The notes: generated from the sequence alone by a model not told the origin. DNA of 64,000 bases from Candidatus Magasanikiibacteriota bacterium (GCA_003510435.1 DOMK01000013.1:12135-76134); one strand, 5' to 3'. Positions 4,546 through 63,654 are shown, counted from the stretch's first letter. A program made the numbers and translations.

Positions 4546-6395
4546 AAACTCCTCCGCCCAATTCAGACCAAAAAAGACAAATTATGGGAGCAATCCTTAG
4601 TCAGATTGTGGCCAAACAAATACTCCCGGCTTTATTAAAAGAAGAATTTGCTAAACATCTAATAAACCCAGCAAATTTTCTACCAAATTCAATAAATGAA
4701 ACTCTGGCCGTAGATCCAGCTCAATATATCAGCCCTGTCCTTTCTAATATAGGCATGCAAAACCCAAACATAAATCCTAAAGACATTGTTGGTAATTTTG
4801 GATCAAATAATTCTAGTTTACAACCATCAACCACAGCTGATTCAACTATTCCAAACCAAGGTGGTAATACTGGAACTTCAACTCCAGATACCACACCACA
4901 GGCAGATGCTGACCAAAATGGATCTCCTGCTAATAAAAATGGTCAATCAAAAAATGATTCAGACCAACCACAGGCAGATGCAGATGCAGATAAAGACAAA
5001 GAAAATCCTGATGACGATGATAAAAAAAATGAAGCCAAAAATCCAGAAGCAACGACTGATTTAAATAATCTTGATACGCCAGCTGATAAAGCTGTTAATA
5101 CAGATCAACCGACTGGTTCTGGTCAAAATCAAAATGTACCTGGATCAACCACCCAGCCTGGACAACAAGTTGGTCCTGGTGGTGTGGTAACCAATCCAAC
5201 TCAAGCAGGAGCACCTGGACAAAATACTCCTGGGAGTAATACACCAAATTCACCAACCACACCAGGAGCTAATGCTCAACCTGGTATGAATCCAAATGTT
5301 AGTAATCCAGATACAAAAGATGATAATGCAGATGCAGGCAAAGATGAAAATATTGATGAGGACGATAAAAAACCAGATGAAGACAAACTAGATGGTGAGG
5401 GTGATGATAAAAAAGAACCTGATGATAAAGATAAAGACGGTGACAAAAAAAATGATGAGAATGATAAAAATAGTGGTGACAAAACAAAACCAGATGAAAT
5501 ACCCTCAGGTTATTACGACCCTTATGCCAATTCAAAAGATGGTACGCATGCGGGATATTTTAATCCTGATGCGTCAAAAGAACAAACACCAGTCATAGAT
5601 GAAACAGGAAGAGACAGAGGAGCTACCATAACCCCAGAAAAAAAACCAGGGGATGGTTATTACGACCCTTATGCCAATTCAAAAGATGGTACGCATGCGG
5701 GATATTTTAATCCTGATGCGTCAAAAGAGGACGAAGATAGGGATGAAAGCAGTGACTCTCCATTTGGTGTTGAAAACCAAGACTTTGGCGGTATGAATAT
5801 GCCAAATCAACAAGAAGACCAGGAATCAGATGACGATACTCCACAAGATGGTAAAAGTGAACAACAGCCAGATAAAAAATCAGATTCTGATAATGACGAA
5901 CAAAAAGAAAAAAAACAAAAAATGGAAAACGAAAAAGGAAGCATGACTCAATTTATAAATCAAAATATAATAAACAGAACAAAGATAAACGGCCTAGAAC
6001 AAGAGATAAAAAATTTAGAAAACCAAGCTAATGATCTAAATAAAAAAAATGATGATTTAGATAAAAAAATTAAAGAATTGGAACCAGAATCAATTAAAAA
6101 ATTAAGGGGCATACAAACATTTATGGGAGGTTGTAGTTGTTGTTCTTGTATTTTTTTACCCATATCTCTTATTTCCTCAATATCAACAGCCTTAATTGAA
6201 TTATTTATCCAAATTAAAAAAAAGAAAGAACATGAAAATAAAGCTGAGATTGAAAAACTTGAAGAAGAAAAAAAAGCAAATACTAAAAATCTTAAACAAA
6301 TTAATAAACAAATTAATAAAATAGCTAGGGATATATACAATTTGCGAAACACAGGAATGATGAAAGGAATGGCCAATAATATGTTCAGACACTAG
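4542..6395 (+). CDS. hypothetical acidic low-complexity protein with an internal exact repeat and a C-terminal Cys-rich hydrophobic segment
   Basis: 617 aa, rich in P/T/G/D/K/N. The 25-aa unit GYYDPYANSKDGTHAGYFNPDASKE occurs twice. A C-terminal coiled coil flanks GGCSCCSCIFLPISLISSISTALIELF. Confidence 0.45.
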   Translation: MKTPPPNSDQKRQIMGAILSQIVAKQILPALLKEEFAKHLINPANFLPNSINETLAVDPAQYISPVLSNIGMQNPNINPKDIVGNFGSNNSSLQPSTTADSTIPNQGGNTGTSTPDTTPQADADQNGSPANKNGQSKNDSDQPQADADADKDKENPDDDDKKNEAKNPEATTDLNNLDTPADKAVNTDQPTGSGQNQNVPGSTTQPGQQVGPGGVVTNPTQAGAPGQNTPGSNTPNSPTTPGANAQPGMNPNVSNPDTKDDNADAGKDENIDEDDKKPDEDKLDGEGDDKKEPDDKDKDGDKKNDENDKNSGDKTKPDEIPSGYYDPYANSKDGTHAGYFNPDASKEQTPVIDETGRDRGATITPEKKPGDGYYDPYANSKDGTHAGYFNPDASKEDEDRDESSDSPFGVENQDFGGMNMPNQQEDQESDDDTPQDGKSEQQPDKKSDSDNDEQKEKKQKMENEKGSMTQFINQNIINRTKINGLEQEIKNLENQANDLNKKNDDLDKKIKELEPESIKKLRGIQTFMGGCSCCSCIFLPISLISSISTALIELFIQIKKKKEHENKAEIEKLEEEKKANTKNLKQINKQINKIARDIYNLRNTGMMKGMANNMFRH

Positions 6396-23495: not shown

Positions 23496-25019
23496 TTGCA
23501 AAATTCATTAAAATTTGATACAAATAAAGGTATGCCAAACAAAAAACAAACAATTGAATCTTTACTCGAAAAAGTAAAAACATACACAAAAAAAGCTGAT
23601 CTAGATATAATCCGCCTAGCTTATGATTTTGCTGATAATGCCCACAATGGTCAGACTAGAAAATCTGGCGAACCATACATTGTTCATCCTTTAGCTACGG
23701 CTCACTTTTTGGCGGACATGCGGATTGACCCCGTCATCTTAACTGCCGCCCTACTCCATGATGTCCCAGAAGATACTGATGTCACGTTGGATGAAATAGA
23801 AAAAAACTTTGGCTCAGAAATTGCGTCACTAGTTCAAGGAATTACCAAATTAGGAAAATTAAAATATCGCGGAGTGGAACGCTATATCGAAAACCTGCGT
23901 AAAATGTTTGTGGCTATGGCCGAAGATGTTCGCGTTATGATTATCAAATTTGCTGATCGGATCCACAATCTGACAACTTTGGGAGCACTACCACCCCAAA
24001 AACAATACCGCATTGCCTTGGAAAGTTTAGAAATTTATGCGCCAATTGCTAATCGTTTGGGTATAGGAGAAATCAAGGGTATTTTAGAAGATCTGTCTTT
24101 TGAATATGTCTACCCAAAAGAATATCAGAGAGTAAAACAAATTAGAGATGAAAAACTCAAAGGCAAGGATGAATTTTTAAGACAAATTCAAGAAGATATA
24201 AAAAATGAATTGTTAAATACTGGTATAAAGACAGTTTCGATTGACGGCAGAAATAAAAGATTATATAGTTTATACCAAAAACTCCAACGTAAAGATCATG
24301 ATATTACTCAAGTTTATGACTTGGTGGCTATTAGAATTATTGTTCCAACCATTGCCGATTGTTATGCTTCCTTAGGTATATTACACAAACATTGGCGACC
24401 ACTAAAAGGCAGAATAAAAGATTATATTTCCCAACCAAAACCAAATGGTTACCAATCACTCCACACCACTGTCTTTTCTGATAATGGAGAAATTATTGAA
24501 TTTCAAATTAGAACTCCAGAGATGCATGATGATGCTGAATATGGTGTTGCTGCTCATTGGCACTACGACGAACATTGTTCAAAACGTCCGGCCAGAGAAA
24601 TCACTTGGATAAAAGAACTAGCTGAAATTCAAAAGGATATTTTAAATAAATTATCAGATTTAGAAGAAATAAAAATAGATTTTTTACAAAATAGAATTTT
24701 CGTTTTCACCCCCAAAGGTGACGTGATTGATTTACCTGAAGGTGCCACTCCAGTTGATTTTGCTTATCATATTCACACCGACATTGGTGATAAATGCAAT
24801 GGCGCCAGAATAAATGAACAAATGGCTAGTCTAGATACTGAATTAAAAAATGGTGACGTAATAGAAATTGTGATAGATAAAAATCGCAAAGGCCCTAGCC
24901 AAGATTGGTTAAATTTTATAAAAACTCATACTGCCAAAACTCATGTGACCAATTATCTAAAAGACAAACAAAAAGGCAAAATTGCTGACTGGTTTAAATA
25001 TGTTCTGCCAAAAAAATAG
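23496..25019 (+). CDS. RelA/SpoT-homologue (p)ppGpp synthetase/hydrolase, short form
   Basis: 507 aa. HD domain (HPLATAHFLA, HDVPED), a synthetase domain (YQSLHTTV) and a TGS domain. No ACT domain. Confidence 0.85.
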   Translation: MQNSLKFDTNKGMPNKKQTIESLLEKVKTYTKKADLDIIRLAYDFADNAHNGQTRKSGEPYIVHPLATAHFLADMRIDPVILTAALLHDVPEDTDVTLDEIEKNFGSEIASLVQGITKLGKLKYRGVERYIENLRKMFVAMAEDVRVMIIKFADRIHNLTTLGALPPQKQYRIALESLEIYAPIANRLGIGEIKGILEDLSFEYVYPKEYQRVKQIRDEKLKGKDEFLRQIQEDIKNELLNTGIKTVSIDGRNKRLYSLYQKLQRKDHDITQVYDLVAIRIIVPTIADCYASLGILHKHWRPLKGRIKDYISQPKPNGYQSLHTTVFSDNGEIIEFQIRTPEMHDDAEYGVAAHWHYDEHCSKRPAREITWIKELAEIQKDILNKLSDLEEIKIDFLQNRIFVFTPKGDVIDLPEGATPVDFAYHIHTDIGDKCNGARINEQMASLDTELKNGDVIEIVIDKNRKGPSQDWLNFIKTHTAKTHVTNYLKDKQKGKIADWFKYVLPKK

Positions 25020-25127
25020 CATTGATTTCACTGATTAATAAATGATTACACAGAAAAACTCCTCAACAAATGTTGAGGAGTTTTTTAATCTGCGAAATCA
25101 TTTTTCAAAATCAGTGAAATCAATGTT
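25020..25127. repeat. TIR-bounded spacer element (gcattgatttcactgatt ... aatcagtgaaatcaatg), family copy A
   Basis: The termini are inverted repeats of each other. The same termini recur at 36381-36470, 41489-41532, 48480-48552, 52760-52844, 54564-54661, 55518-55626 and 58459-58565. Confidence 0.65.
25054..25086. terminator. bidirectional intrinsic terminator between convergent genes
   Basis: aaaaa-ctcctcaac-aaat-gttgaggag-tttttt: a 9-bp stem with A- and T-runs on either side. It lies at the centre of the 25020-25127 repeat element. Confidence 0.65.
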
Positions 25128-25991
25128 TTAACTCAATTCGCTTATCAATCTCTTCAACTCTTCTTTAGAATAATATTCCACCACAATTGTCCCCTTTTCA
25201 CCTTTTTGGGTTATGTAAACCTTAGTACCCAATCTCTCTTCCAAAACTTGCTCAGCCGATATTAAATTTGGATCACGCCGAACAGAACCCTTGCGTGAAC
25301 CTGGTCCTTTTTGCGCTATTACTTGTTCCACATCTCTCACAGTCATCTTCTCACCCATCATACTGGCAAAAACATCTAGTTGTTCTTTTTCATCTCTAAG
25401 ACTTAAAAGAGACTTGGCTTTACCGACACTAATTTTATTATCAATCAAAGCTTTTTGAATTACTTCTGGCAAAGACAACAGACGAACTAAATTGGCAACC
25501 GAAGAACGACTCTTACCAACTTGTTCAGACACATCTTCTTGAGTAAGACCAAATTCATCAATTAACCTCTGATAAGCAAAAGCTTCTTCAACTGGATTAA
25601 GATCTTGACGTTGAATATTTTCTATCAAAGCTAATTCTAATTTTTGCTGTTGATTGGCACTGCGAACAATTGCTGGGACAGTGGCCAAACCAGCAATGGC
25701 AGACGCTCGTAAACGCCTTTCACCAGCAATCAATTCATAACCACCGTCAGACTTTTCTGTCACGACTAGTGGTTGTAAAATGCCGTGTTTTTTAATTGAA
25801 GCTACCAAATCTTCCAAATCAGAATGAGAAAATTCTCGACGTGGCTGTTCAGAATTAGGTACGATTTCTGAAATTGGAATATGCCAAATTTTATCATTAT
25901 CATTATTAAGAATACCTGTTTCGCGATGAATCATTTTTCTAAAAGTGCTTTGCTGTGGTATAAGTGAATTGAGTCCTTTACCTAGAGCCAT
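25128..25991 (-). CDS. parB: chromosome partitioning protein ParB (Spo0J)
   Basis: 287 aa. ParB N-terminal box (GERRLRAS), an HTH and a C-terminal dimerisation region. Confidence 0.85.
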   Translation of the reverse strand: MALGKGLNSLIPQQSTFRKMIHRETGILNNDNDKIWHIPISEIVPNSEQPRREFSHSDLEDLVASIKKHGILQPLVVTEKSDGGYELIAGERRLRASAIAGLATVPAIVRSANQQQKLELALIENIQRQDLNPVEEAFAYQRLIDEFGLTQEDVSEQVGKSRSSVANLVRLLSLPEVIQKALIDNKISVGKAKSLLSLRDEKEQLDVFASMMGEKMTVRDVEQVIAQKGPGSRKGSVRRDPNLISAEQVLEERLGTKVYITQKGEKGTIVVEYYSKEELKRLISELS

Positions 25992-26226: not shown

Positions 26227-27014
26227 GAAATAATCTCTCTTGCTAGTCTTTCATAAGCCTTAGCGCCTTTTCCATTGGGATCATAATGAAATATTGACTG
26301 ACCAAAACTTGGGGCTTCGGCCAGACGAACGGTACGAGGAATTACTGTACGAAAAATTGTATCAGGAAAATATTTATACAATTCATTCATAATATCCTCT
26401 GACAATTTGGTTCGTTTATCAAACATAGTAATCACGGCTCCCAAAATACCAAGCTCAGGCTTGATATGAGTTTGGATAAGATTGATTGTTTTTAATAACT
26501 GACCTAAACCCTCTAAAGCATAATATTCTGCCTGAACTGGAATAAGAAGTTCGTCAGCTGCCACCAAACTATTGATAGTCAACAAACCCAAAGACGGCGG
26601 ACAATCAATAATAATATAATCATAAGCATGCTTTAATTCTTCTAATAAATCAGCCAATTGAAATTCACGCCTCTCAACATCCACCAGTTCAATATTAGCC
26701 CCAGCTAGATTTTCTGTACTAGGAGCAATTCGCAAACCTTCATGGGCAGTATTTTTTATAATATCATGAATCCTTTTCTGTTTTGCTAGAGCCTCATAAA
26801 TACCATATTCCACATTATCTTTATTTAAACCCAAACCACTAGAAGCATTAGCTTGTGGATCCATGTCAACCAATAACACAAAATAGCCCAATTCTGATAA
26901 AACAGCGGCCAGATTCATGGCAGTAGTCGTCTTTCCTACTCCGCCTTTTTGATTAACAACAGAAATTACTTTTCCCATATCACATATTATAGCAAATATT
27001 GACAAAAAAACCAA
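26205..27014 (-). CDS. parA: chromosome partitioning ATPase ParA (Soj)
   Basis: Deviant Walker A KGGVGKTT. The tabulated ORF starts with TTG at 27014; ATG at 26978 (MGKVISVVNQKGG) is the more likely start. Confidence 0.85.
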   Translation of the reverse strand: MVFLSIFAIICDMGKVISVVNQKGGVGKTTTAMNLAAVLSELGYFVLLVDMDPQANASSGLGLNKDNVEYGIYEALAKQKRIHDIIKNTAHEGLRIAPSTENLAGANIELVDVERREFQLADLLEELKHAYDYIIIDCPPSLGLLTINSLVAADELLIPVQAEYYALEGLGQLLKTINLIQTHIKPELGILGAVITMFDKRTKLSEDIMNELYKYFPDTIFRTVIPRTVRLAEAPSFGQSIFHYDPNGKGAKAYERLAREIISLHSERQ

Positions 27015-27027
27015 GATAACTTATAAT
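26999..27027 (+). promoter_or_regulatory. consensus sigma70-type promoter TTGACA-N17-TATAAT reading toward tRNA-Leu
   Basis: ttgaca aaaaaaccaagataact tataat about 145 nt upstream of tRNA-Leu. A divergent TATAAT for parA lies at about 26986-26991 on the other strand. Confidence 0.55.
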
Positions 27028-27170
27028 GTATCCACAAAAGATATGCCCAGATGCCTGCCTGCCGACGAGGCAGGGCGGAACTGGTACCATGAACCACAAG
27101 GATTCATGACCATACACCCCACGTGGTGCATGGGACGCACAGTATTATTTACAAGAACACAACCAAATAT

Positions 27171-27257
27171 GCCCAGATGGCGGAACTGGTAGACGCACTG
27201 GACTCAAAATCCAGCGGTCGCAAGACCATGAGGGTTCGATTCCCTCTTTGGGCACCA
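27171..27257 (+). tRNA. tRNA-Leu (anticodon CAA), class II with a long variable arm
   Basis: 87 nt ending in an encoded CCA. Anticodon loop CTCAAAA, long extra arm CGGTCGCAAGACCAT, T-loop TTCGATT. The 3' end lies 7 nt before the next ATG. Confidence 0.8.
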
Positions 27258-34508: not shown

Positions 34509-34586
34509 AAATTTAGGAATTAGGAGTTAGGGCTAGATGCGAGAAAAAATTCCCGCATCTCATTCCTTATTCCCTACTCCCAATAT
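34509..34586. repeat. structured spacer element (taggaattaggagttaggg ... gatgcgagaaaaaattcccgcatc ... ccttattccctactccc)
   Basis: A related copy lies at 46051-46135 (ttaggatttaggaattag ... gatgcgggaat ... ccctaactcctaattcc). Confidence 0.55.
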
Positions 34587-36380: not shown

Positions 36381-36561
36381 ATAGCATTGATTTAAACAGA
36401 TTAAAACTGATTCAGACAAAAAATTTACCACAAAATCTCTGTGTAATTCTGTCTAAAACAATGCTTATATCTTAGCAAAAACTAACCGATTTGGCAAGCA
36501 AAAAACACACCAATTTTGATGTGCTTTTGAGTCGTCCCGAAGGCGCAGACGACCTTCGGGT

Positions 36562-36771
36562 TCATTCCTTCTTCCTCCTCGAGGGGAATGCCTCCTTGAT
36601 GACACGGTACTCGGACCACGTCATCCACTGACCAGGCACAACACCGAAGATCTCACTGGGTGTTCGCCTGCCACCCGTCTTCTCCGACGGAATGCACTCA
36701 TCCAGCGCTTCCGGCGGGTAACGACGCAGTTCGTCCGTCTGAACAGATTTTAGTGCAAACACCTTGGGCAT
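36562..36771 (-). CDS. GC-rich 69-aa hypothetical protein (mini-cassette 3)
   Basis: MPKVFALKSVQTDELRRYPPEALDECIPSEKTGGRRTPSEIFGVVPGQWMTWSEYRVIKEAFPSRRKKE. It has its own TATAAT (plus 36799-36804) and a GGAG RBS, followed by a GC-rich double hairpin and a T-run (36494-36560). GC content is clearly above the surroundings. Confidence 0.5.
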   Translation of the reverse strand: MPKVFALKSVQTDELRRYPPEALDECIPSEKTGGRRTPSEIFGVVPGQWMTWSEYRVIKEAFPSRRKKE

Positions 36772-36873
36772 GTTGTTCTCCAAATCTATGTTTATTTTAT
36801 TATACACCCACAAAATTTTTATGCAACAAAAAAACACACTAATTTTAATGTGTTCACCATTTCCGTGTTCTCC

Positions 36874-40048: not shown

Positions 40049-41380
40049 CTAATAAACTTCCAAATATCTTTCCCTTTCCCACTCTGACACATGGAGTCTA
40101 AAGTCATCCCATTCACTCATTTTTATTTCATAATATCTTTTAGCCATTTCCTTACCTAAAACATCATTAATCATTTTATCATCTTTCATGGCAAGCAGAG
40201 CACTATATAAATCTCTAGATACAGTATCAATTCCCCGATTCACGATTTCTTCTGGTGTCATTTCATAAGTTGATTCTTCAATTGGTTCTGGCGCTTGAAG
40301 TTTATTTTCAATACCATCCAAACCAGCTGATAACATCACCGCATAAGCTAAATATGGATTACATGTTGGATCTGGACAACGTAATTCACACCGTGTAGTC
40401 TGTGGCTTATCTGGATTGACCCGAGGAATACGCATGAGAGCTGATCTGTTTGTTTGACCCCAAGAAATATAAACTGGAGCTTCATAACCTACTACTAAAC
40501 GCTTATAAGAATTTACTGTTGGATTAATAATCGCGTTCATACCCTTGATATGACCCAGTTGGCCAGCGATAAACTGTAAAGCATAATCTGACAAGTGATA
40601 CTTTTTATCATCAGAATAAAAAGCATTTTTTCCTTCACTAAACAAACTCTGGTTAGTATGCATACCAGAACCATTAATCCCATAAAATGGTTTGGCCATG
40701 AAAGTCGCATGCAAACCCATTTTCTTGGCTACCATTTTTAAAGCATATCTAAAGGTAATAGTATTATCTGCAGCACACAAGGCATCAGAATATTTAAAGT
40801 TGATTTCATGCTGACCATTGGCTACTTCATGATGCAGGGCTTCCACTTCCATTCCAAATCCAGCCAAGGCTGTGCCCATAGCATGACGAACAGCCGTCGC
40901 GCCATCAATTGTCTGATCAAAATAACCCGCTTTATCATGTGGTAAAGGTTCAATTGTACCATCTTCTTTACGCTTCATGAGAAAAAATTCTAACTCTGGT
41001 GCCACATAATAATCAAAACCTAATTTCTTCGCTCTAGCCAATTGTTTTTTCAAAATATAACGTGGATCACCAGTAAATGGTTCACCATCTGGTGTAAATA
41101 CATCACAAATTACTCTCGCTTCGGTATAACCATTTCCTCTTGTCCAAGGAATTACACAGAAAGTTTCCAAATCTGGTTTTAAAAACATATCAGATTCAGA
41201 AATCCGTGCAAAACCTTCAATTGAAGAACCATCAAACCACTTACCATGTTTGATAGTATCACCAAACTGCTGTACTGGAATAGTGACAGCCTTTAATACC
41301 CCCAATAAATCTGAAAACTGTAGGTGAATAAATTTCACCTTGTGTTTAACAATTTCCTCCCTAATTTGTTCTGTTGTCAT
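40049..41380 (-). CDS. glnA: glutamine synthetase type I
   Basis: About 443 aa from MTTEQIREEI. GS beta-grasp and catalytic domains. The tabulated ORF runs further, into tRNA-Asn. Confidence 0.9.
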   Translation of the reverse strand: MTTEQIREEIVKHKVKFIHLQFSDLLGVLKAVTIPVQQFGDTIKHGKWFDGSSIEGFARISESDMFLKPDLETFCVIPWTRGNGYTEARVICDVFTPDGEPFTGDPRYILKKQLARAKKLGFDYYVAPELEFFLMKRKEDGTIEPLPHDKAGYFDQTIDGATAVRHAMGTALAGFGMEVEALHHEVANGQHEINFKYSDALCAADNTITFRYALKMVAKKMGLHATFMAKPFYGINGSGMHTNQSLFSEGKNAFYSDDKKYHLSDYALQFIAGQLGHIKGMNAIINPTVNSYKRLVVGYEAPVYISWGQTNRSALMRIPRVNPDKPQTTRCELRCPDPTCNPYLAYAVMLSAGLDGIENKLQAPEPIEESTYEMTPEEIVNRGIDTVSRDLYSALLAMKDDKMINDVLGKEMAKRYYEIKMSEWDDFRLHVSEWERERYLEVY

Positions 41381-41415
41381 AATTTTATAATTATGAATTA
41401 ATGAATTAAATTTTG

Positions 41416-41488
41416 CTCCGAGGGCTGGACTCGAACCAGCGATATCCGCGTTAACAGCGCGGTGTTGTACCAACTCAACTACCTCGGA
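41416..41488 (-). tRNA. tRNA-Asn (anticodon GTT)
   Basis: 73 nt. Acceptor TCCGAGG/CCTCGGA, anticodon loop CTGTTAA, T-loop TTCGAGT, discriminator G. CCA is not encoded. Confidence 0.8.
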
Positions 41489-41799
41489 ATAAATTACATC
41501 AATTTTAATCTGTTTAAATCTGTCTAAATCAATGCCAAAATTAAAGACTCTCCCGTCGGGGAGAGTCGTTTGTAGTGTTAGTCTGTTTTAGGACACTAAA
41601 AAACTCGCCCGCCGGGTTGGGGTGTATTATTATTAGTATTACTTGTCTGCCGTAGAGGCAGATTTGTTCGAAACATTTGTCTCATATGTTTAAATAATAC
41701 AACTACTTTTGAATAACGTCAAATAACTTATCCACACCGCACTAGAACCTCCTTACAGTCGGTTCGGTGCAGTGCAAGCACCTTTAAACAAAAGCACCA

Positions 41800-41828
41800 T
41801 TGACAAAACTACTTTTCTGTGATATAAT
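41800..41828 (+). promoter_or_regulatory. consensus sigma70 promoter TTGACA-N17-TATAAT (mini-cassette 1)
   Basis: ttgaca aaactacttttctgtga tataat. An AGGAGG RBS at 41901-41906 lies 7 nt before the ATG at 41914. Confidence 0.6.
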
Positions 41829-41913
41829 ATTTTGTTAAAAAACAGTTGAAAAACTAGATTTATTTGGCTAAATATAGACAAATTTGTCCGGTCTTTCAAC
41901 AGGAGGAAACGCC

Positions 41914-42084
41914 ATGGAATTAATCCTGGCAATAATCCTCGGCCTGATTGGGTTTGCCATCCTGAAGCTGATTCTTCGCACCGCTCTGTTCGGTGTAAAG
42001 ATCGGCTGTGGGTTGCTCACCCTCGCCATAATACTCGCGATCGTGTCGGGCCTGTGGCTGAAAGCCGGGGAGGGGTTCGTGTGA
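41914..42084 (+). CDS. GC-rich 56-aa hydrophobic peptide with two predicted TM helices (mini-cassette 1)
   Basis: MELILAIILGLIGFAILKLILRTALFGVKIGCGLLTLAIILAIVSGLWLKAGEGFV. Strong RBS. The stop codon sits in the loop of the hairpin gggttcg-tgtgaa-cgaaccc. Codon usage is GC-rich, unlike neighbouring genes. Confidence 0.5.
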   Translation: MELILAIILGLIGFAILKLILRTALFGVKIGCGLLTLAIILAIVSGLWLKAGEGFV

Positions 42085-42131
42085 ACGAACCCGCCCATTA
42101 TTAATTTTATATTTTAAAATTAATATAGGAT

Positions 42132-42160
42132 AAAAAATTCTGTTTTACACAGAATTTTTT
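42132..42160. terminator. bidirectional terminator aaaaaa-ttctg-ttttaca-cagaa-tttttt
   Basis: Hairpin flanked by A- and T-runs between recO (minus) and cassette 1 (plus). Confidence 0.55.
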
Positions 42161-42770
42161 ATTTTAATATTTTGCCCCAATCATTAACTTTTCTATCTGT
42201 ATTATACAATAAAAATTTATATATAAAATCATGCACTGATTTTTTGTATTCTAGTTTATTTATGATTTCCCAATTTTCTTTACTTAACATTTCTAAATCA
42301 TTTTTTATTCCAGTCGGAATTTTATCAGACTCAACAATATCTAAACCAAGATAAGACAATAACCTTACAACATAAGAATCTAACAAGTGTATACCGTATA
42401 CTGTATACTGATTATCAACATATTCCAACCAACTCACAATCAAATCAAATATTCTCTCATCTTTCTCTCCTTCGTGTAAAAGTTTATCCAAAGTTGAAAC
42501 CAAAAATCCCGCGGCCAAACTTTTTTGCAATTTTTTTCTAATACTAACAAAATAATTTATTGGTTGAACTGCTCCTAAATAATTTAATTCCTTACCAAGA
42601 ATAACTTCTGCTTCTACCAAAGAAAACGGCTCTAAATGAGCCGAATTTTTTGAAGTAATTTTTTTTACCCCTCTCGTCAAAATTTCCATTTTTCCTTTTT
42701 CCAAAGTATAAAATGAGATAATTTGATCAGCCTCGCGAAAATCACGGCGATAGAGGACAAATGCTAACAT
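42159..42770 (-). CDS. recO: DNA repair protein RecO
   Basis: 203 aa. N-terminal OB-fold signature (YRRDFREADQIISFYT...). No Zn finger, which is common in short RecO forms. Confidence 0.75.
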   Translation of the reverse strand: MLAFVLYRRDFREADQIISFYTLEKGKMEILTRGVKKITSKNSAHLEPFSLVEAEVILGKELNYLGAVQPINYFVSIRKKLQKSLAAGFLVSTLDKLLHEGEKDERIFDLIVSWLEYVDNQYTVYGIHLLDSYVVRLLSYLGLDIVESDKIPTGIKNDLEMLSKENWEIINKLEYKKSVHDFIYKFLLYNTDRKVNDWGKILK

Positions 42771-42772
42771 AA

Positions 42773-43027
42773 TTACTTTTTATATTTAAACATTAAACCT
42801 AACTGAAAAATACTTAAAATGAGAGATAAACCATTTGTTATTATTATTGGCCAGCTAACTATAAAATAGGCATATACAACCCACAATAGCATGCTAATAG
42901 CATAAGTTATTATAAGCAAAAAAGATAATTCATCAACTTTTTTTAATTTATAAGTTTTAACAATCTGAGGCAACATATTTAACAAAGTAAAAATTCCTGC
43001 CACATACCCGATTAATTCAACAAACAT
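42773..43027 (-). CDS. SemiSWEET/PQ-loop family small transporter
   Basis: 84 aa, 3 TM helices, PQ motif (LPQIVKTYK). Confidence 0.55.
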   Translation of the reverse strand: MFVELIGYVAGIFTLLNMLPQIVKTYKLKKVDELSFLLIITYAISMLLWVVYAYFIVSWPIIITNGLSLILSIFQLGLMFKYKK

Positions 43028-43036
43028 AGATATTTA

Positions 43037-44293
43037 TTAATAAATAAAAGATGATATTACTAAAATGACTGTCGCAGCAATAATTCCACCAACAGTTAAC
43101 CAAGCAATAATATTTCCAATGGGTTTATTTACATGTTCCCCCATAATTTTTTTATCATTAATAATTTTAAGTACAAAAATCAAAATGATTGGCAATAAAA
43201 TTCCATTAACATCTTGAGATAAAATCATCACTTTAATTAATGGTAAACCTGGTATTAATACTAAAATTGCGGGGATAATAATCCCGACCAAAATAATACT
43301 ATAAAAAATTCTCGCTTCATACCATTTTTTATTAAAACCATATTCCCAACCAAAGGCTTCACAAATCGCATAGGCTGTGGCAGTTGGTAAAATAAAAGCC
43401 CCAAGCATTGAAGCTACAAACAAACCAAAAGCAAATAAAATTAAAGAAAATTGGCCAGCCAATGGTTTCAAGGCCATGGCCGCATCTTTGGCATCAGTAA
43501 TGTGAATTCCGTGTTTATAGAGAGTATAAGCAGTACTAATAATAATAAAAAAACTAACAATATCTGTAATAAAAGCACCTAAAAAAACTTCGAGTTTTTC
43601 GGCTTTATAGTGTTTGATATCCAAACCCTTGTCAACTACATATGATTGAATAAAAAATTGCCCCCAAGGAGTAATAGTTGTACCAATCAAAGCAATCATG
43701 GTAAGTAAAAATGGCGCGCTAAATTCTAATGTTGGTTGAAATAATGACCGAGTGGCTTCTCCAAAATCTGGGCCTACCAAAAAACCATTAACTATATAAA
43801 CAACATAAAATGCTGAAAATATTAAAAATATTTTTTGGGTAAGTTTAAAAGAACCTTTGTACAAAATTAACCACACAGCCAAAGCTGCCACTGGCACTGA
43901 CCAATATTTTGATATATTACCAATTTCAAAAGATGACGCAATCCCAGCAAACTCAGCTGTAATTGTACCCAGATTGGCAATAAGCATGGTCACCATGGCA
44001 AACAAAGTCCATTTTACCCCAAATTTTTCTCTAATAATGCCACCTAGTCCCTGTCTAGTGACCAAACCAATGCGCACGCCCATTTCTTGAGTAATAGCCA
44101 AAGAAAAAGTAATTAAAAACAAAACCCAAAGCATTTTGAGACCAAAGTGAGCACCAACAATTGAATAGGTAGAAATACCACCCGCATCATTATCAGCATT
44201 GGCAGCAATAATCCCTGGACCAATCACGCTCAAAAAAAATAAAACTTTGGCCCACCAAATTGATTTTTTACTAACAATCTTTTTCTCTGACAT
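43037..44293 (-). CDS. mntH: NRAMP-family divalent metal transporter
   Basis: 418 aa with about 11 TM helices. NRAMP signature GPGIIAANADNDAGGISTYSIVGA. Confidence 0.85.
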   Translation of the reverse strand: MSEKKIVSKKSIWWAKVLFFLSVIGPGIIAANADNDAGGISTYSIVGAHFGLKMLWVLFLITFSLAITQEMGVRIGLVTRQGLGGIIREKFGVKWTLFAMVTMLIANLGTITAEFAGIASSFEIGNISKYWSVPVAALAVWLILYKGSFKLTQKIFLIFSAFYVVYIVNGFLVGPDFGEATRSLFQPTLEFSAPFLLTMIALIGTTITPWGQFFIQSYVVDKGLDIKHYKAEKLEVFLGAFITDIVSFFIIISTAYTLYKHGIHITDAKDAAMALKPLAGQFSLILFAFGLFVASMLGAFILPTATAYAICEAFGWEYGFNKKWYEARIFYSIILVGIIIPAILVLIPGLPLIKVMILSQDVNGILLPIILIFVLKIINDKKIMGEHVNKPIGNIIAWLTVGGIIAATVILVISSFIY

Positions 44294-46050: not shown

Positions 46051-46135
46051 AATTAATTAGGATTTAGGAATTAGTAATAAGATGCGGGAATTTCTCTCGC
46101 CTCAAGCCCTAACTCCTAATTCCTTTTTTATATAA
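46051..46135. repeat. second copy of the taggaatt / gatgcgggaat / cctaattcc spacer element
   Basis: See 34509-34586. Confidence 0.55.
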
Positions 46136-47819: not shown

Positions 47820-48479
47820 TTATTTCAAAATTTTTTCAATTTCCTTATCAACTTTATCAATATCAATCTCACCATCTACAGTTTTTAAGACTCCCAAATC
47901 TTGGTAATAATCCAAAATTGGTCTAATGGCTGTATTCCCTTGTTCAATAATTCTCTTTTTGGCTGACTCGGGATTATCATCTTCACGAATTATTAATTTA
48001 CCCCTACATTCTGGACAATCAAACTTGGCTTCATTTTCTAGAGAATAAGGCAATATATATCCACAATCTGGACAAATTTTACGTCGAGTCAAACGATTAA
48101 AACTAGTCTTGTCAGATAAAGCAATTTCAATTACCAAAATTTCATTTTCTAAACGCTTGTTAGTAAAATATTCTTGGTATTTTTTGGCTTGCTCTACATT
48201 GCGAATCGCCCCATCTAACAAAACCCCTCTACCTGAATCTAAATTTTTATCCATAGCCGAAAAAGCTAGCTTGTATATCAAATCATCAGCTACTAGTTTA
48301 CCAGCTTTCATGTCATCTAATTTTTGTTTATCTGTTGGGTCAGCATTTGGATCTTTATCCAAAGCGCGCAATAAATCTCCAGTGGAAATATGCGCCAAAT
48401 CATATCGACCAACTAATTTTCTTGCTTGGGTGCCCTTACCACTCCCGGGGACGCCCATTAATATTATTACTTTTTTCAT
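47820..48479 (-). CDS. adk: adenylate kinase with a Zn-lid
   Basis: 219 aa. P-loop GVPGSGKGTQ and lid cysteines CPDCG...CPEC. Confidence 0.9.
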   Translation of the reverse strand: MKKVIILMGVPGSGKGTQARKLVGRYDLAHISTGDLLRALDKDPNADPTDKQKLDDMKAGKLVADDLIYKLAFSAMDKNLDSGRGVLLDGAIRNVEQAKKYQEYFTNKRLENEILVIEIALSDKTSFNRLTRRKICPDCGYILPYSLENEAKFDCPECRGKLIIREDDNPESAKKRIIEQGNTAIRPILDYYQDLGVLKTVDGEIDIDKVDKEIEKILK

Positions 48480-48552
48480 AGCATTGATTAAAACTGATTT
48501 AGACTGATTTAAACGATTAAATTTCTGTTTTAATCTGTCTAAATCAATGCTT
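48480..48552. repeat. TIR-bounded spacer element, copy D (gcattgattaaaactgatttagactgattt ... ctgtctaaatcaatgc)
   Basis: Near-identical to 52760-52844 over about 70 bp. Confidence 0.7.
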
Positions 48553-48834
48553 TTACAATTGATTATAATAATTTTTAAACACTGTCATTAATCCTTCTTT
48601 ATCATCATGACTTATTTTTCCACTAACACGTAAATGATGCAACACATCACGAATCTTTTGCAAAGAAATCATATGCTGACCATCACGAGCAGCCAAAATA
48701 GCCAATTCTACGGTTTGTTCATCATGATAATTTAAAGAAGCTACTTTATGTTGTGAAACCAAATGTCTGACAGCTTCACTATGTAGATGATGTCCTGTGG
48801 TAGAATATTTTGTACTAGAGCCAAATATTGACAT
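48553..48834 (-). CDS. hypothetical His-rich small protein
   Basis: 93 aa with many His residues (HHLHSE, HHLRV). No motif recognised. Confidence 0.35.
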   Translation of the reverse strand: MSIFGSSTKYSTTGHHLHSEAVRHLVSQHKVASLNYHDEQTVELAILAARDGQHMISLQKIRDVLHHLRVSGKISHDDKEGLMTVFKNYYNQL

Positions 48835-48892: not shown

Positions 48893-48921
48893 TTGACAAA
48901 TATATATATGTGTGATAAAAT
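48893..48921 (+). promoter_or_regulatory. promoter TTGACA-N17-TAAAAT (mini-cassette 2)
   Basis: ttgaca aatatatatatgtgtga taaaat. A 5'UTR hairpin tgtgggt...acccaca follows, then RBS GGAGGG at 48976-48981 and the ATG at 48988. Confidence 0.55.
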
Positions 48922-48987
48922 AATTTGTCTTGTGGGTTACTTACACCCACAGATAGCATACAACCGATCTTACCTGGAGGGAAGAAA

Positions 48988-49176
48988 ATGCAAATTCGTT
49001 TTCTAGACATCGTTGCCTTGGTCGTTCAGGTACTAGTGGTCCTAGGTGGTTTGTTACTCACAATACTCAGTGAGACCGTGTGGGATCTGTCGGTTGGAAT
49101 CGCGACAACCTACAGCGGAGTACGGGCGATAAAAGGCATCTTCAAAGAAATGAGGACGCCTCCACCAGCCGATTAA
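48988..49176 (+). CDS. GC-rich 62-aa hydrophobic peptide (mini-cassette 2)
   Basis: MQIRFLDIVALVVQVLVVLGGLLLTILSETVWDLSVGIATTYSGVRAIKGIFKEMRTPPPAD. One long hydrophobic span. GC-rich codons. Confidence 0.5.
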   Translation: MQIRFLDIVALVVQVLVVLGGLLLTILSETVWDLSVGIATTYSGVRAIKGIFKEMRTPPPAD

Positions 49177-49256
49177 GTGAGGGGGCAGTCAGTTCCAAGC
49201 CCCCCAGAGCAATAAAACATTTATTTTTCTGGGGGACTGATTGCCTTAATAATAAA

Positions 49257-49286
49257 ACCAGCTGTTTTTAAACGGCTGGTTTTTTT
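49257..49286 (+). terminator. intrinsic terminator accagc-N12-gctggt plus a T7 run
   Basis: Downstream of the cassette-2 ORF. Preceded by G/C-tract hairpins (gggggc...gccccc). Confidence 0.6.
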
Positions 49287-52210: not shown

Positions 52211-52759
52211 TTAACTAGCAGATTTAGCCGCTGTCTTACCTTCTTTACGGCGGATAACTTCTTCAAGATATTTAATTCCTTTACCTTTGTAAGGTTCTGG
52301 TTTTCTAATTTTTCTTACTTCGGCTGCTACATTACCCAACAATTCTTTATCAGAACTTTCCAATGTAATTAGATTCTTTTCTACCCCAGCTGTCACCGTG
52401 TTTGGAATTTTGTAAATTACTGAATGGGAAAAACCAACTTCCAGTTTCAAATCTTTACCTTGCATGGCCACTTTATAACCCACACCATTAATTTCTAATT
52501 GTTTTTTAAATCCAGTTGTTACACCAGTCACCATATTTTGGATGTGAGAAGAAAAAGTTCCCCACAAAGAACGTTCCGATTTTTCATCTTCATTTTTAAC
52601 TGATACAGAAATAACGTTGTCCTCAATCTTAACACTCACTTTATCATTAAGCTTGCGAGTCAAAGTTCCTTTTGGACCTTTTACCAAAATTTCATCTGCT
52701 TTTAGATCAACGGTTACTCCAGCTGGAATTTGAATTGTTCTTTTGCCTATACGTGACAT
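52211..52759 (-). CDS. rplF: 50S ribosomal protein L6
   Basis: 182 aa starting MSRIGKRTIQIPAGV. Confidence 0.9.
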   Translation of the reverse strand: MSRIGKRTIQIPAGVTVDLKADEILVKGPKGTLTRKLNDKVSVKIEDNVISVSVKNEDEKSERSLWGTFSSHIQNMVTGVTTGFKKQLEINGVGYKVAMQGKDLKLEVGFSHSVIYKIPNTVTAGVEKNLITLESSDKELLGNVAAEVRKIRKPEPYKGKGIKYLEEVIRRKEGKTAAKSAS

Positions 52760-52844
52760 AGCATTGATTAAAACTGATTTAGACTGATTTCAGATAATTA
52801 AACATCTGTTTTAATCTGTCTAAATCAATGTTTATTTAGTTTAT
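52760..52844. repeat. TIR-bounded spacer element, copy E, between rpsH and rplF
   Basis: gcattgattaaaactgatttagactgatttcagataattaaacatctgttttaatctgtctaaatcaatg. Confidence 0.7.
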
Positions 52845-53237
52845 TTAATATACTGAACAAATAATTTCTCCACCAATACCCAATTTACGAGCTTGCTTAT
52901 TAGTCATAAAACCTTGTGAAGTGGATATAACCGCCACACCAAAGTCATTCAAAATTCTCGGCATTTCCTCGGATTTGCGATAAATACGATAACCTGGCTT
53001 ACTCACCCGAACCAAAGATCTAATTTGTGGTTCTCGGTCATTGTATAAAAGCTCAATGGTTAATTTCTTTACTGGCTTTTCTTCCACAATTTCAACTTTG
53101 CCCACATATTTTTCTTGAGCCAAAATATCAGCAATCGCTTTTTTTACCTTTGAAAAAGGTAACACAATATTTGCCCGTCTTGATAATTGGGCATTGCGTA
53201 TGCGAGTTAACATGTCTGCGATAGGATCGGTCATCAT
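52845..53237 (-). CDS. rpsH: 30S ribosomal protein S8
   Basis: 130 aa starting MMTDPIADMLTRIRNA. Confidence 0.9.
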   Translation of the reverse strand: MMTDPIADMLTRIRNAQLSRRANIVLPFSKVKKAIADILAQEKYVGKVEIVEEKPVKKLTIELLYNDREPQIRSLVRVSKPGYRIYRKSEEMPRILNDFGVAVISTSQGFMTNKQARKLGIGGEIICSVY

Positions 53238-54242: not shown

Positions 54243-54563
54243 TTATTCTATATATTCACCACTAACTTTAGCAACACGTTTTTTTTCATTACCTTCCTGC
54301 TTGTAACCAACTCTAGTCGCCTTACCTGATTTTGGATCCAACAACATTACATTGCTGATACTAATTGGCGCTGGTAATTCGATTATTTGTCCTTTTTCAC
54401 CTTGTTTTCTAGTTCGCATGTGTTTCTTTAAAATATTCACATCTTCAATAACCACAAATAATTTTTGACTAGATTTATTTTTTAAAACCTGAATAACCTT
54501 GCCAGTCTTTCCACTGTCTTTTCCTTTTATAACTTTTACTTTGTCACCGGTTTTAATTTTCAT
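54243..54563 (-). CDS. rplX: 50S ribosomal protein L24
   Basis: 106 aa with a KOW motif ([20 protein letters not shown]). Confidence 0.9.
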
Positions 54564-54661
54564 AACATTGATTTCACTGATTTATTATATTTGATTACAC
54601 TGATTTGGAGGATGTCTTTTATATCTGTGAAATCCATTTCCAAATCTGTGCAATCAATGTT
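54564..54661. repeat. TIR-bounded spacer element, copy F, between rplN and rplX
   Basis: acattgatttcactgattt ... tgtgcaatcaatgtttta. Confidence 0.65.
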
Positions 54662-55033
54662 TTATAAGACTTCAGGCGCTAATGAAATAATTTTTTGGAA
54701 ACCTTTGGTTCTAAGCTCTCTAGCGACTGGTCCAAAAATACGTGTTCCTTTTGGTTCTTTACTTTTTTTGTCAATAATTACAGCGGCGTTATTATCAAAA
54801 CGGATATATGTACCATCCTTACGACGCATTTCTTTTCTTTGACGAACAATCACAGCATGAACAACATCACCTTTCTTTATGGCGGCACGTGGAGCAGCTT
54901 CTTTGACAGCACAAGTAATTACATCACCAAGGAAGGAATAACGTTTTTTATACCCACCCAAGACACGAATACATTGTAATTTTTTTGCGCCAGAATTGTC
55001 TGCCACTTCTAACATTGATCTATGCTGGATCAT
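54662..55033 (-). CDS. rplN: 50S ribosomal protein L14
   Basis: 123 aa starting [18 protein letters not shown]. Confidence 0.9.
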
Positions 55034-55517: not shown

Positions 55518-55626
55518 ACAACATTGATTTAACTGATTTATATTGATTTCACAGATTACTTACGTATTTTTTGATTATCAATTCGTATTCAGTGTAATCT
55601 ATTTTCTTAATCTGCGCAATCAATGT
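55518..55626. repeat. TIR-bounded spacer element, copy G, between rplP and rpmC
   Basis: acattgatttaactgattt ... atctgcgcaatcaatgttt. Confidence 0.65.
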
Positions 55627-56040
55627 TTAGTCCTTTTTAATAAATTTAACTTTGGTTGGTAATTTATAACCACTCAAGAGTAAAGCTGTTCTAGCTTCGC
55701 TTTCCAAAATACCATCCATTTCCATCATTACTGTACCTGGTTTGATAGTACAAACATAATGATCCGGTGCACCTTTACCTCCACCCATTGGAACTTCGCT
55801 ACCTTTTTTTGTTACTGGTCTATCAGGAAAAATTCTAATCCAGATCTTACCACCACGACGAACATAACGAGTCAGTACACGACGAGCTGCTTCAATTTGA
55901 CGAGAGGTCACCCAAGCATGATCAAGAGCAACAATACCAAAAGCGCCAAAAGCTAAAGTGTTTATACGGCTGGCCACTCCTCTATTCTTATGACGTGGCT
56001 TGTGCCATTTTCTATGTTTTACTTTCTTGGGTAACAGCAT
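55627..56040 (-). CDS. rplP: 50S ribosomal protein L16
   Basis: 137 aa starting [14 protein letters not shown]. Confidence 0.9.
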
Positions 56041-58458: not shown

Positions 58459-58565
58459 ATTTTATAACACAGATTTCACAGATTATTTAGAATGATTCCA
58501 CAGATTTGATAGATTTGGCTCGTTTACATTCAGTGAAATCTATTTTAATCCGTGTAATCAATGTT
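58459..58565. repeat. spacer element, copy H, between rplW and rplB (cacagattt words plus the right terminus gtaatcaatgtttt)
   Basis: Shares the right TIR and the word structure with copies A-G. Confidence 0.55.
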
Positions 58566-59024
58566 TTAAACCCCTTCATGGACATTGACTGTCTCACCTT
58601 TTGCCAAGGTGACAATCGCTTTTTTCCAATCACTGGTTCTACCTTTTTTTCCTCTGGTATTTTTAGCTTTACCTTCTCGATTCATTATTCTTACTTTTAG
58701 TACCTTTACATTATAAATTTGTTTTATAATATTTCTTACATCCACTTTGGTCGCAGCTTTTTCTACAGAAAAAGTATAAGAATTATGACTTTCAGCAATC
58801 GCAGCTTTTTCACTTATCACAGAAGAAAGTAAAACCTTATAAGCCTGTCCATTTATTTTTTTTGTTAAATCACTTTTTTTAACTTTGTTTACTGTTTCAG
58901 TAGCATTATTATCAACTACAGCCTCAACTTTTTTCTCAACCTTAACTTTAGCAGTCGCTTGTTTAGGAGCAACGGCTTTGGCTTCAGCAGTACTTTTCTT
59001 TTTAAATTTATCTAATAAACCCAT
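58566..59024 (-). CDS. rplW: 50S ribosomal protein L23 (with a K/A-rich N-terminal extension)
   Basis: 152 aa. The L23 core lies in the C-terminal 95 aa. Confidence 0.85.
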   Translation of the reverse strand: MGLLDKFKKKSTAEAKAVAPKQATAKVKVEKKVEAVVDNNATETVNKVKKSDLTKKINGQAYKVLLSSVISEKAAIAESHNSYTFSVEKAATKVDVRNIIKQIYNVKVLKVRIMNREGKAKNTRGKKGRTSDWKKAIVTLAKGETVNVHEGV

Positions 59025-62853: not shown

Positions 62854-63062
62854 TTTCTCTGCACTAAAAAAGTCTTAAATTTCTAATATCTAATTTCTAA
62901 TTAACCTAATAAAATACCAAATAACAAAATCCAAATTCCAAATCAATTTTAAACTTAAGATTACTAAATTAATATCCACACCACTTACATTGACAACTCT
63001 CTCTCTCTGTTTGTTAGGATAAGATGTCGTGCATCGAACGCACGAAGATGAAGGAGGCAGAC

Positions 63063-63395
63063 ATGGCGATTGTCACCATCCGGTTGTACCGGAAAAATGG
63101 CAAAAGGGGGGTTGAGGTAATCAAAAAAAAGCATTACCCGCGCCTCCAACGGTCACTTACCCGCTACATGGCCTCGGTCGATGGAGAACACCTCGCCCGC
63201 TCATGGAACACAGCAGGGCTGGCCGAGGTAGACGGTGAATGGTTTGTCACCGTCGATGGAGATGGTAAGGCCAGCATGCCGGAAAAACTGAGAAGCCATC
63301 TCTGGATCTACTATGGCTTCAACAGGTTCCTAGCAAGGATCTACAAGGGCCTAACCAGTGACGATGAACACCTTCCCGCCTTTCGCCCCTCCTAG
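63063..63395 (+). CDS. GC-rich 110-aa hypothetical soluble protein (mini-cassette 4)
   Basis: MAIVTIRLYRKNGKRGVEVIKKKHYPRL.... RBS AAGGAGG 5 nt upstream. A TTGACA box lies at 62990-62995, with a weak -10 TAGGAT after a 19-nt spacer. Very GC-rich relative to its neighbours. An alternative upstream ATG at 63024 lacks an RBS. Confidence 0.45.
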   Translation: MAIVTIRLYRKNGKRGVEVIKKKHYPRLQRSLTRYMASVDGEHLARSWNTAGLAEVDGEWFVTVDGDGKASMPEKLRSHLWIYYGFNRFLARIYKGLTSDDEHLPAFRPS

Positions 63396-63654
63396 CGTTC
63401 GCTTCGCCCCGGTTCAGGGGCAACATGCCGGTTGCGCGTCAGCCGATGACCGAGAGGGAAAACCCTCCGGGTGTCGGAGGGTGTGAGCATGCGGACAATA
63501 CAACGAAAGAATCGTCCACCACAGCTAGATTTTCATTATTGAAAATTTAACTAAGGAGTTTGGGACGATTTTTTTGTTTACACAAGCAATCCTATCCCCT
63601 AACCCCTTTCCCCTACAAAAGGGCAAGGGGAATTAAAGCCCCTCCACTTTTTAA

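Follow-up and report, generated by a model that had tools for sequence, protein, structure and literature searches.

A short unit in the chromosome of a Candidatus Magasanikbacteria bacterium, which we call cassette 1, is probably a genuine, unannotated and lineage-restricted gene for a 56-residue peptide, the messenger RNA (mRNA) of which is under selection to fold. It lies in a 64,000-nt stretch of DNA (GCA_003510435.1 DOMK01000013.1:12135-76134; hereafter, the window), within a 670-nt spacer that runs from a tRNA-Asn gene (41415-41488, minus strand) to the 3' end of recO (42159-42770, minus strand), and it is convergent with recO. Nearly all relatives of the RecO protein are metagenome-assembled genomes of the Magasanikbacteria, a lineage of the Candidate Phyla Radiation (CPR, or Patescibacteria). 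We take the host to be an uncultured groundwater bacterium.

A probable peptide gene between tRNA-Asn and recO

Cassette 1 is natural sequence rather than an assembly artefact, because the same sequence is found in contigs of four independent metagenome assemblies (ENA, Logan and JGI). Three of these contigs match the window at 100% identity along their length, the fourth at 99.93%; the intergenic region that holds the cassette is 100% identical in all four.

The original prediction, made from the sequence, described a consensus promoter, a strong Shine-Dalgarno (SD) sequence and a 56-residue open reading frame (ORF) with two hydrophobic stretches and its stop codon inside a GC hairpin. Each of these elements is present (Table 1). 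The -35 (TTGACA, 41800-41805) and -10 (TATAAT, 41823-41828) boxes are 17 nt apart, and TG at 41820-41821 makes the -10 an extended one. Exact 12/12 promoters occur twice in the window, compared to a mean of 0.13 in block shuffles, and two were reached in 0.7% of shuffles. The second precedes tRNA-Leu, and the cassette 1 promoter is of the host's own strong-promoter type. Transcription is predicted to start near 41835, giving a leader of ~79 nt, and the predicted transcript ends place promoter and terminator ~330 nt apart. The terminator is shared with the convergent recO gene, whose stop codon (42159-42161) it overlaps.

The two hydrophobic segments of the predicted peptide span residues ~3-21 and ~30-48, and a basic linker containing K18, R22 and K29 connects them. 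Its hydropathy profile shows two maxima, and its grand average of hydropathy (GRAVY) is 1.87. The peptide is probably a membrane hairpin.

A homologous cassette occupies the same position, in the same orientation, on the metagenomic contig L052 (RecO 70% identical). This copy has TTGACA-17-TATAAT, a leader hairpin and an ORF of 51 codons with GGGAGG 8 nt upstream of the ATG; it shares the GC stem and the bidirectional terminator with the window, and its promoter-to-ATG distance is almost that of the window (-114 versus -118, window and L052). The two peptides are 58% identical across 45 aa. Their ORFs differ by 10 synonymous and 19 non-synonymous codon changes, distributed 16/9/18 over codon positions 1/2/3 (dN 0.34, dS 0.68), and every replacement exchanges one hydrophobic residue for another. 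The 27 invariant alignment columns include all three basic linker residues and an FGVK motif between the hydrophobic segments.

These comparisons bear on the possibility that cassette 1 is a structured non-coding RNA and its ORF a by-product of GC richness. GC-rich islands in AT-rich genomes classically point to non-coding RNA, tRNA-Leu has a promoter of the same class, and the helices of the transcript are preserved by compensatory changes (see below). The antisense strand, too, has a long ORF (76 aa, 41868-42098), so ORF length alone is no proof of coding in such a GC-rich patch. We nevertheless regard a non-coding RNA as unlikely. A strong SD stands at the right distance from the ATG in both genomes, and the 45 aligned codons contain zero indels. 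Thymine occupies the second codon position at a frequency of 0.55, giving a uniformly hydrophobic product in which the basic residues are nonetheless conserved, and variability increases from codon position 2 to position 1 to position 3. In other genomes (L010, L032, L083 and L040), unrelated cassettes at the corresponding site likewise encode very hydrophobic peptides, and Rfam holds no match. As for the opposite-strand ORF, we rejected it as a gene: it has no SD, no promoter and the wrong codon-position variability, its second codon position being the more variable sense position 1.

The peptide has no relatives in the protein collections we searched. An exact look-up returned no record, and a word-indexed search of 5.8 billion protein clusters found no match, either for the peptide or for its alignment with the L052 homologue. 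Exhaustive HMMER comparison with 1.84 billion cluster representatives yielded a single, spurious match derived from repeats (P0002). Pfam, PHROGs, PADLOC and NCBIfam contained nothing at E <= 1 apart from a spurious match to MnhC/MrpC, subunit C of a Na+/H+ antiporter. We discarded this candidate, which covers profile positions 1-48 of 114 and scores 17.5 bits against a cut-off of 105; the L052 homologue does not match MnhC. A profile of cassette 1, run with nhmmer and hmmsearch over 103 related loci and the window, found no further copies.

Table 1. Positions of cassette 1 elements and of related features in the window
Feature	Coordinates	Strand	Details
Sigma-70-type promoter TTGACA-17-TATAAT, extended -10	41800-41828	+	12/12 score
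Long 5' leader hairpin, inner stem GACAAA/TTTGTC	41845-41900	+	Fold; between promoter and SD
Shine-Dalgarno AGGAGG	41901-41906	+	7-nt spacer to ATG at 41914
ORF, 56 aa, MELILAIILGLIGFAILKLILRTALFGVKIGCGLLTLAIILAIVSGLWLKAGEGFV	41914-42084	+	Stop codon at 42082-42084
Candidate anti-SD UCCUC, codons 8-9	41936-41940	+	By-eye inference from minimum free energy structure
Long imperfect hairpin built from coding region	41941-42052	+	Fold; conserved in L052
GC hairpin, 8 bp, stop codon in loop	42073-42092	+	Fold; stem identical in L052
Bidirectional intrinsic terminator AAAAAATTCTGT...ACAGAATTTTTT	42132-42165	both	Shared with convergent recO; conserved in L052
438-nt segment in window and L052, 38 nt instead in L005	41741-42178	+	Alignment
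Candidate antisense promoter TTGAAA-17-TATATT, within 5' leader	41871-41899	-	10/12; AT-rich, could be chance
Candidate small RNA gene, recO strand, separate from cassette 1	41538-41722	-	Conservation, fold
Cassette 2	36482-36860	-	69-aa ORF
Cassette 3	48893-49260	+	62-aa ORF
Cassette 4	62990-63550	+	110-aa ORF

Conservation of the mRNA fold

The mRNA of cassette 1 is unusually structured. The predicted full transcript folds better than its shuffles (z = -8.9), as does the ORF region (z = -3.9), and the fold is conserved with compensatory changes. When the minimum free energy (MFE) structure was computed from the window only, 34 of its 40 pairs were retained in L052. Both partners have changed at eight pairs, and all eight still pair. 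In a control that scattered substitutions randomly, with their number at each codon position held equal, 1.8 +/- 1.2 double-change pairs were retained, and eight were reached in 0 of 2000 trials. Sliding the partner by 1-3 nt left only 12-22 pairs intact. Likewise, RNAalifold applied to the full transcripts of the window and L052 found 13 compensatory pairs among 69 consensus pairs.

Paired changes are also visible in the leader hairpin, where we read them directly from the sequences because the MAFFT alignment is poor there. Its inner stem is GACAAA/TTTGTC in the window and GATAAA/TTTATC in L052, and its outer stem is GTTAAA/TTTAAC versus GTTGAAA/TTTCAAC. At the other end of the transcript, the stem of the stop-codon hairpin (GGGTTCG/CGAACCC) is identical in the two genomes and its loop differs. 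The MFE structure closes a helix around the start codon, and inspection by eye suggests that the SD may pair there with the UCCUC of codons 8-9. The stretch GCAATAATCCTCGG is identical in L052; SD and anti-SD are the same in both genomes, and hence this helix shows no covariation.

A second, independent pair of cassettes gives a similar picture. Between L032 and L083, 41 of 48 predicted pairs are retained, compared to 17-24 in slid controls. In both, a 3' hairpin holds the end of the ORF and the stop codon, and the codons for the conserved C-terminal 'RGACGG' make up its 5' arm. Overall, the feature stands well above chance and is an orphan gene under two constraints, one on the peptide and the other on the mRNA fold.

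Several points weigh against this interpretation. The ORF was left uncalled by gene callers in every copy of the contig. Its coding and covariation statistics all come from one sequence pair, the window and L052, in which dN/dS is only ~0.5 and the opposite-strand ORF is open in both members. The gene is dispensable, because the closest species (L005, see below) lives without it. AlphaFold2, run on the peptide alone, returned an all-helical model (pLDDT, its per-residue confidence, 87) with no turn resolved; this single continuous helix shows no hairpin and is uninformative on that question. Third codon positions are G or C at 30 of 33 predicted paired sites versus 11 of 23 unpaired ones, a comparison that is partly circular, as MFE prediction favours G-C pairs. 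Finally, for the three other GC-rich cassettes of the window, the gain in folding over shuffles is only modest (z = -1.2 to -2.3), so RNA structure may not explain every GC-rich cassette.

Origin of the GC richness

The window has a mean GC content of 34.6%, and the whole of 41525-42095 had been described as conspicuously GC-rich against this background. That description fits the ORF, where 100-nt intervals reach 0.50-0.62 (41900-42099), but it does not hold uniformly: promoter and leader are AT-rich (0.25-0.38, with 0.25 at 41800-41899), 41550-41799 measures 0.35-0.46, and the GC-rich part of cassette 1 is the ORF only. By codon position, GC1/GC2/GC3 of the ORF is 0.57/0.36/0.73, compared to a GC3 of 0.23-0.29 in host genes. 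The L052 copy has a GC3 of 0.55 within a contig of 33% GC.

Such a composition could mark a gene recently acquired from a GC-rich donor, for example a moron (a cargo gene brought in by horizontal transfer), that has yet to drift toward the host's own. In keeping with transfer, GC3 is far above the host's ~0.25, the codon use is rich in CTG and ATC, the cassette is absent from the closest species, and the protein databases hold no relatives. Nevertheless, this account, which formed part of the original prediction, is improbable. The syntenic homologue in L052 shares promoter, leader, hairpin and terminator, and ancestry followed by loss in L005 is simpler. The promoter and leader are AT-rich and of host type. 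We found no integrase, phage gene or att-type repeat flanking the cassette and no donor in the 5.8 billion clustered proteins, the 1.84 billion cluster representatives or viral contigs, which we scanned with the peptides of cassettes 1 and 4. Megablast of 40500-43500 against 50,697 phage records was also negative.

Cassette 2 provides a further comparison. Its syntenic homologue in L019 (recO 50% identical) is just as GC-rich even though synonymous sites are saturated (dS 2.2; global protein alignment z = 5.8, with 22 of 58 residues identical). Because the composition has outlasted dS saturation, the promoters are AT-rich and of host type, and no donor homologue exists in the collections searched, we favour active maintenance over recent transfer. 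The GC richness of cassette 1 most likely reflects selection for a folded mRNA and not foreign origin; in cassettes 2-4, folding would account for it at most in part.

The recO/tRNA-Asn site in related genomes

In L005, the closest species in GTDB (RecO 81% identical), 41741-42178 is replaced by 38 nt and the flanks align. The left junction of the 438-nt segment immediately follows AACTTATCCACACC. Judged by recO dS relative to the window, L052 (1.30) is more distant than L005 (0.77). On these sequences, the simplest history would be that cassette 1 is ancestral and was then lost in L005.

Other relatives carry different cassettes at the same place. L010, L032, L083 and L040 have one to three GC3-rich ORFs at the recO/tRNA-Asn site, antiparallel to recO; their products are unrelated and very hydrophobic, 41-149 aa long, with one or two membrane segments predicted in each, and we confirmed strong promoters for the L010 and L040 cassettes. 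Such genes recurrently occupy this site in Magasanikbacteria, with 0-3 copies per genome, always antiparallel to recO.

The two tandem cassettes of L010 (6740-7820, minus strand) reach a GC content of 0.72 in a genome of 36% GC. They share a promoter (TTGACAAAAC...TGnTATAMT) and a ~45-nt 3' tail (tccaactatcattctaaacttyttggagtgrttgaggaaa), and their peptides (61 and 149 aa, two hydrophobic segments each) are unrelated. This pattern looks like ORF swapping between constant flanks. We considered and rejected a mobile leader common to L010 and cassette 1: the two have in common no more than the promoter consensus and a short TAGACAAATTTGTC-like hairpin, which stand at different distances.

Nor did we keep the DnaA box (TTATCCACA) that stands at 41728, at the left junction, as a sign of an origin or att site. 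The sequence TATCCACACC stands ahead of cassette 4 as well, the window contains 33 DnaA-box matches with up to one mismatch against 23 +/- 4.7 expected, which is unconvincing, and there is no GC-skew switch at the cassette 1 locus.

A separate candidate small RNA gene

Three hairpins upstream of cassette 1 (41536-41660) had been suggested to form a small RNA. They are real (41546-41567, ~41575-41600 and 41645-41663) and lie inside a conserved candidate small RNA gene, but this unit is on the opposite strand and is not a partner of the cassette. In the window it has its own promoter (TTGACG-17-TATTAT, 41722-41694, 10/12), a AAUAAUAAUA-rich core and, at its end, a terminator hairpin (41567-41546) followed by a U-run. 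The minus-strand fold has a z-score of -5.2. Hairpin 1 of the three is this terminator, and hairpin 3, 21 nt long, is an insertion relative to L005 that is specific to the window.

The unit is present between recO and tRNA-Asn in at least seven relatives, all without the cassette (L005 6650-6830, L007 4520-4685, L008 6665-6815, L012 6590-6700, L022 6825-6930, L023 6790-6895 and L054 1225-1330). Its conserved parts are the promoter, visible as TTGACA-17-TATAAT in L007 and L008, a AAUAAUAAUAACAAUAAUAA-like tract, a short hairpin with GUAGUUUU after it, and the intrinsic terminator. The candidate has no match in Rfam.

That these hairpins are the small RNA antitoxin of cassette 1 is very improbable. 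The unit is strongly structured and adjoins the cassette, as a partner might. Its retention in relatives that lack the cassette largely refutes the idea, and its independent promoter and terminator, together with the window-specific origin of hairpin 3, are further arguments against it. Complementarity to the cassette mRNA, as judged by eye, is limited to AU-rich runs of 7-8 nt.

The GC hairpin CTGCCG(N3)GAGGCAG, ~21 nt, occurs twice in the window: at 41645-41663, in the small RNA-like unit, and at 27059-27073, inside a duplicated tRNA-Leu fragment. Including one site with a single mismatch there are three matches, compared to 0.31 expected by chance. This element may be a tiny mobile hairpin.

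Comparison with type I toxin-antitoxin systems

Type I toxins are controlled by the folding of their mRNAs, and the toxins themselves are mostly single membrane helices; some, such as ldr, ibs and zor, form arrays of tandem copies. The locus had been likened to these systems, and the likeness stands in part: cassette 1 is an autonomous unit for a hydrophobic peptide with a structured, conserved mRNA, but it belongs to no known family and the upstream hairpins are not its partner RNA. The antitoxin of such systems is an antisense RNA of 60-200 nt that pairs with the toxin mRNA. Type I toxin mRNAs are 150-400 nt long and encode peptides of 20-60 aa, with SD/anti-SD pairing and stem-loops at the 5' and 3' ends (T1TAdb, PMC8594479); for control by mRNA folding, see PMC6733600. 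With 56 aa, a GRAVY of 1.87 and a predicted mRNA of ~330 nt, cassette 1 falls within the type I size range.

The resemblance extends to particular systems. Like the hok/sok, aapA/isoA, ldr/rdl and bsrG/SR4 mRNAs, cassette 1 would be a short stand-alone transcript with its own promoter. It also has in common with type I toxin mRNAs a hydrophobic peptide of <=60 aa, 5' and 3' stem-loops, predicted SD/anti-SD pairing, a conserved mRNA fold, an intergenic and unannotated position and, in relatives, tandem divergent copies. It differs in having two hydrophobic segments where type I toxins usually have one, in its lack of similarity to catalogued families, in its CPR/Patescibacteria host and in forming a strong GC3 island in an AT-rich genome.

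A further difference concerns the antisense RNA, which type I systems possess; cassette 1 has only weak antisense promoter-like sites. These score 9-10/12 and are conserved in position, at -43/-47 and -90/-97 relative to the ATG (window/L052), and we found no antisense terminator. The L052 counterpart of the site in the leader (41871-41899) is TTTAAA-16-TAAAAT, 9/12. The check for an antisense promoter that the original prediction advised therefore yields only weak candidates, their positions shared with L052.

A complete type I module, in which translation of the membrane toxin would be blocked by a cis antisense RNA from a leader promoter (~41899-41871 or ~41852-41824), is a possibility that we hold only tentatively. 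Its peptide and predicted transcript sizes, stem-loops and predicted SD/anti-SD pairing fit the published description (PMC8594479). Two antisense promoter-like sites occupy equivalent positions in the window and L052, and the tandem copies in relatives recall the arrays mentioned above. Against it, those sites fall in AT-rich sequence already conserved for the leader hairpin and lack a detectable terminator, the peptide departs from the usual single helix, and a toxin promoter of perfect consensus would be hard to keep silenced. Searches of Pfam, NCBIfam, PADLOC and Rfam matched no toxin or antitoxin family, and PHROGs likewise contained no type I toxin match. In Rfam 15, tRNA-Asn was the sole match at gathering score in 41300-42300; elsewhere at the locus the matches were partial and at chance level, for example OrzO-P antitoxin at the terminator (18-19 bits, against a gathering score of 60). 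A full-text literature search found no paper naming both type I toxin-antitoxin systems and Patescibacteria, and a search on Magasanikbacteria, small proteins and GC-rich sequence found nothing relevant.

Two other kinds of gene invite comparison. Pmp3/YqaE and YtjA/DUF1328 are two-helix small membrane proteins, broadly conserved and ordinary in codon usage. They resemble the cassette 1 peptide in length (~50-57 aa), in having two hydrophobic segments and in their short basic loop. Unlike them, the peptide is found in two known lineages only, is encoded by a structure-constrained mRNA and, the sub-threshold MnhC match aside, has no Pfam or NCBIfam match at E <= 1. With morons and integron-type gene cassettes, cassette 1 shares a compact promoter-ORF-hairpin layout, atypical composition and variable presence. 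In contrast to these, it has no integrase, attC/attI site or prophage context, and it does have a host-type promoter and syntenic, vertical homologues. Overall, we regard cassette 1 as a type-I-toxin-like small membrane-peptide gene outside any known family, an analogy that is reasonable but unproven.

Other features of the window

Genes in the window include tuf, the ribosomal-protein/secY operon, asnS, glnA, recO, Nramp, mgtE and ruvX. Three further GC-rich cassettes of like design had been predicted, and all are real (Table 1). The peptide of cassette 4 matches only itself in database searches, annotated as a hypothetical protein.

Right after the stop codon of cassette 2 stands a 40-nt element, ACCCGAAGGTCGTCTGCGCCTTCGGGACGACTCAAAAGCA (36520-36562, minus strand; L019 9931-9975), that can fold into either of two hairpins. 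The window and L019 copies are 100% identical, compared to 50% identity for RecO and 38% amino-acid identity for the adjoining ORF. After the ORF of cassette 4, ~155 nt (63396-63550) have a GC content of up to 0.68 and several hairpins, with no convincing ORF; this segment could be a structured 3' untranslated region or a separate RNA. Cassettes 1 and 2 both lie in a segment bracketed by intergenic inverted repeats of ~70 nt (AGGAATTAGGAGTTAGGGCTAGATGCGAG...; 34515-34584 and 46056-46124), 82-87% complementary and 11.5 kb apart.

The second perfect TTGACA-17-TATAAT of the window opens a composite arrangement at 26999-27170. It is followed by a partial duplicate of the tRNA-Leu 5' end (GCCCAGATG...GCGGAACTGGTA), interrupted by the CTGCCG(N3)GAGGCAG hairpin, then by ~90 nt of GC-rich sequence and the intact tRNA-Leu (27171-27257). 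This arrangement could be an integration scar or an unusual precursor.

Palindromic repeats of one family (GCATTGATTTAGACAGATT...AATCTGTYTAAATCAATGC) occupy intergenic positions, some of them within the ribosomal-protein operon, at 25016-25140, 36381-36478, 41498-41536, 48478-48564, 52758-52845, 54562-54674, 55518-55640 and 58547-58578. Relatives have species-specific versions (ATTAGTG/CACTAAT), often directly 5' of -35 boxes (L008 and L010). Lastly, a 617-aa ORF (4542-6395) contains an exact 74-nt direct duplication (5508-5581 and 5655-5728) along with many short D/E/K-rich repeats.

Discussion

We propose that G and C at synonymous sites of cassette 1 build the structure of its mRNA, which would keep GC and GC3 high. 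The transcript would be made at a high rate, and its own fold, by way of the 5' hairpin and the predicted SD/anti-SD pairing, would restrain translation. The finished peptide would enter the membrane as a helical hairpin. The cassette is built like a type I toxin mRNA, and therefore, by analogy, its most likely role would be to supply a tightly gated, membrane-active and possibly toxic peptide.

A broader claim can be made only with considerable doubt: that Magasanikbacteria carry an unrecognised class of type-I-toxin-like modules, gathered at a recO-convergent hotspot and using synonymous G/C to fold their mRNAs. If true, this class would consist mostly of two-segment hydrophobic peptides, visible as GC3 islands in AT-rich genomes. 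These would be the first type I toxin-antitoxin-like systems described in the CPR, and the GC3-island signature could serve to find more of them.

Small CPR proteins are largely missing from annotation. The ORF of cassette 1 is absent from 15 billion predicted proteins, although several metagenomes have yielded its contig. Where a genome is AT-rich, a local GC3 island can flag selection on mRNA structure instead of foreign DNA, and such islands offer a simple handle on small genes, perhaps including toxin-like modules, that lie hidden in the reduced genomes of symbionts. Should the peptide prove to be a gated membrane toxin, a major uncultured radiation would be added to the known range of RNA-controlled toxin systems.

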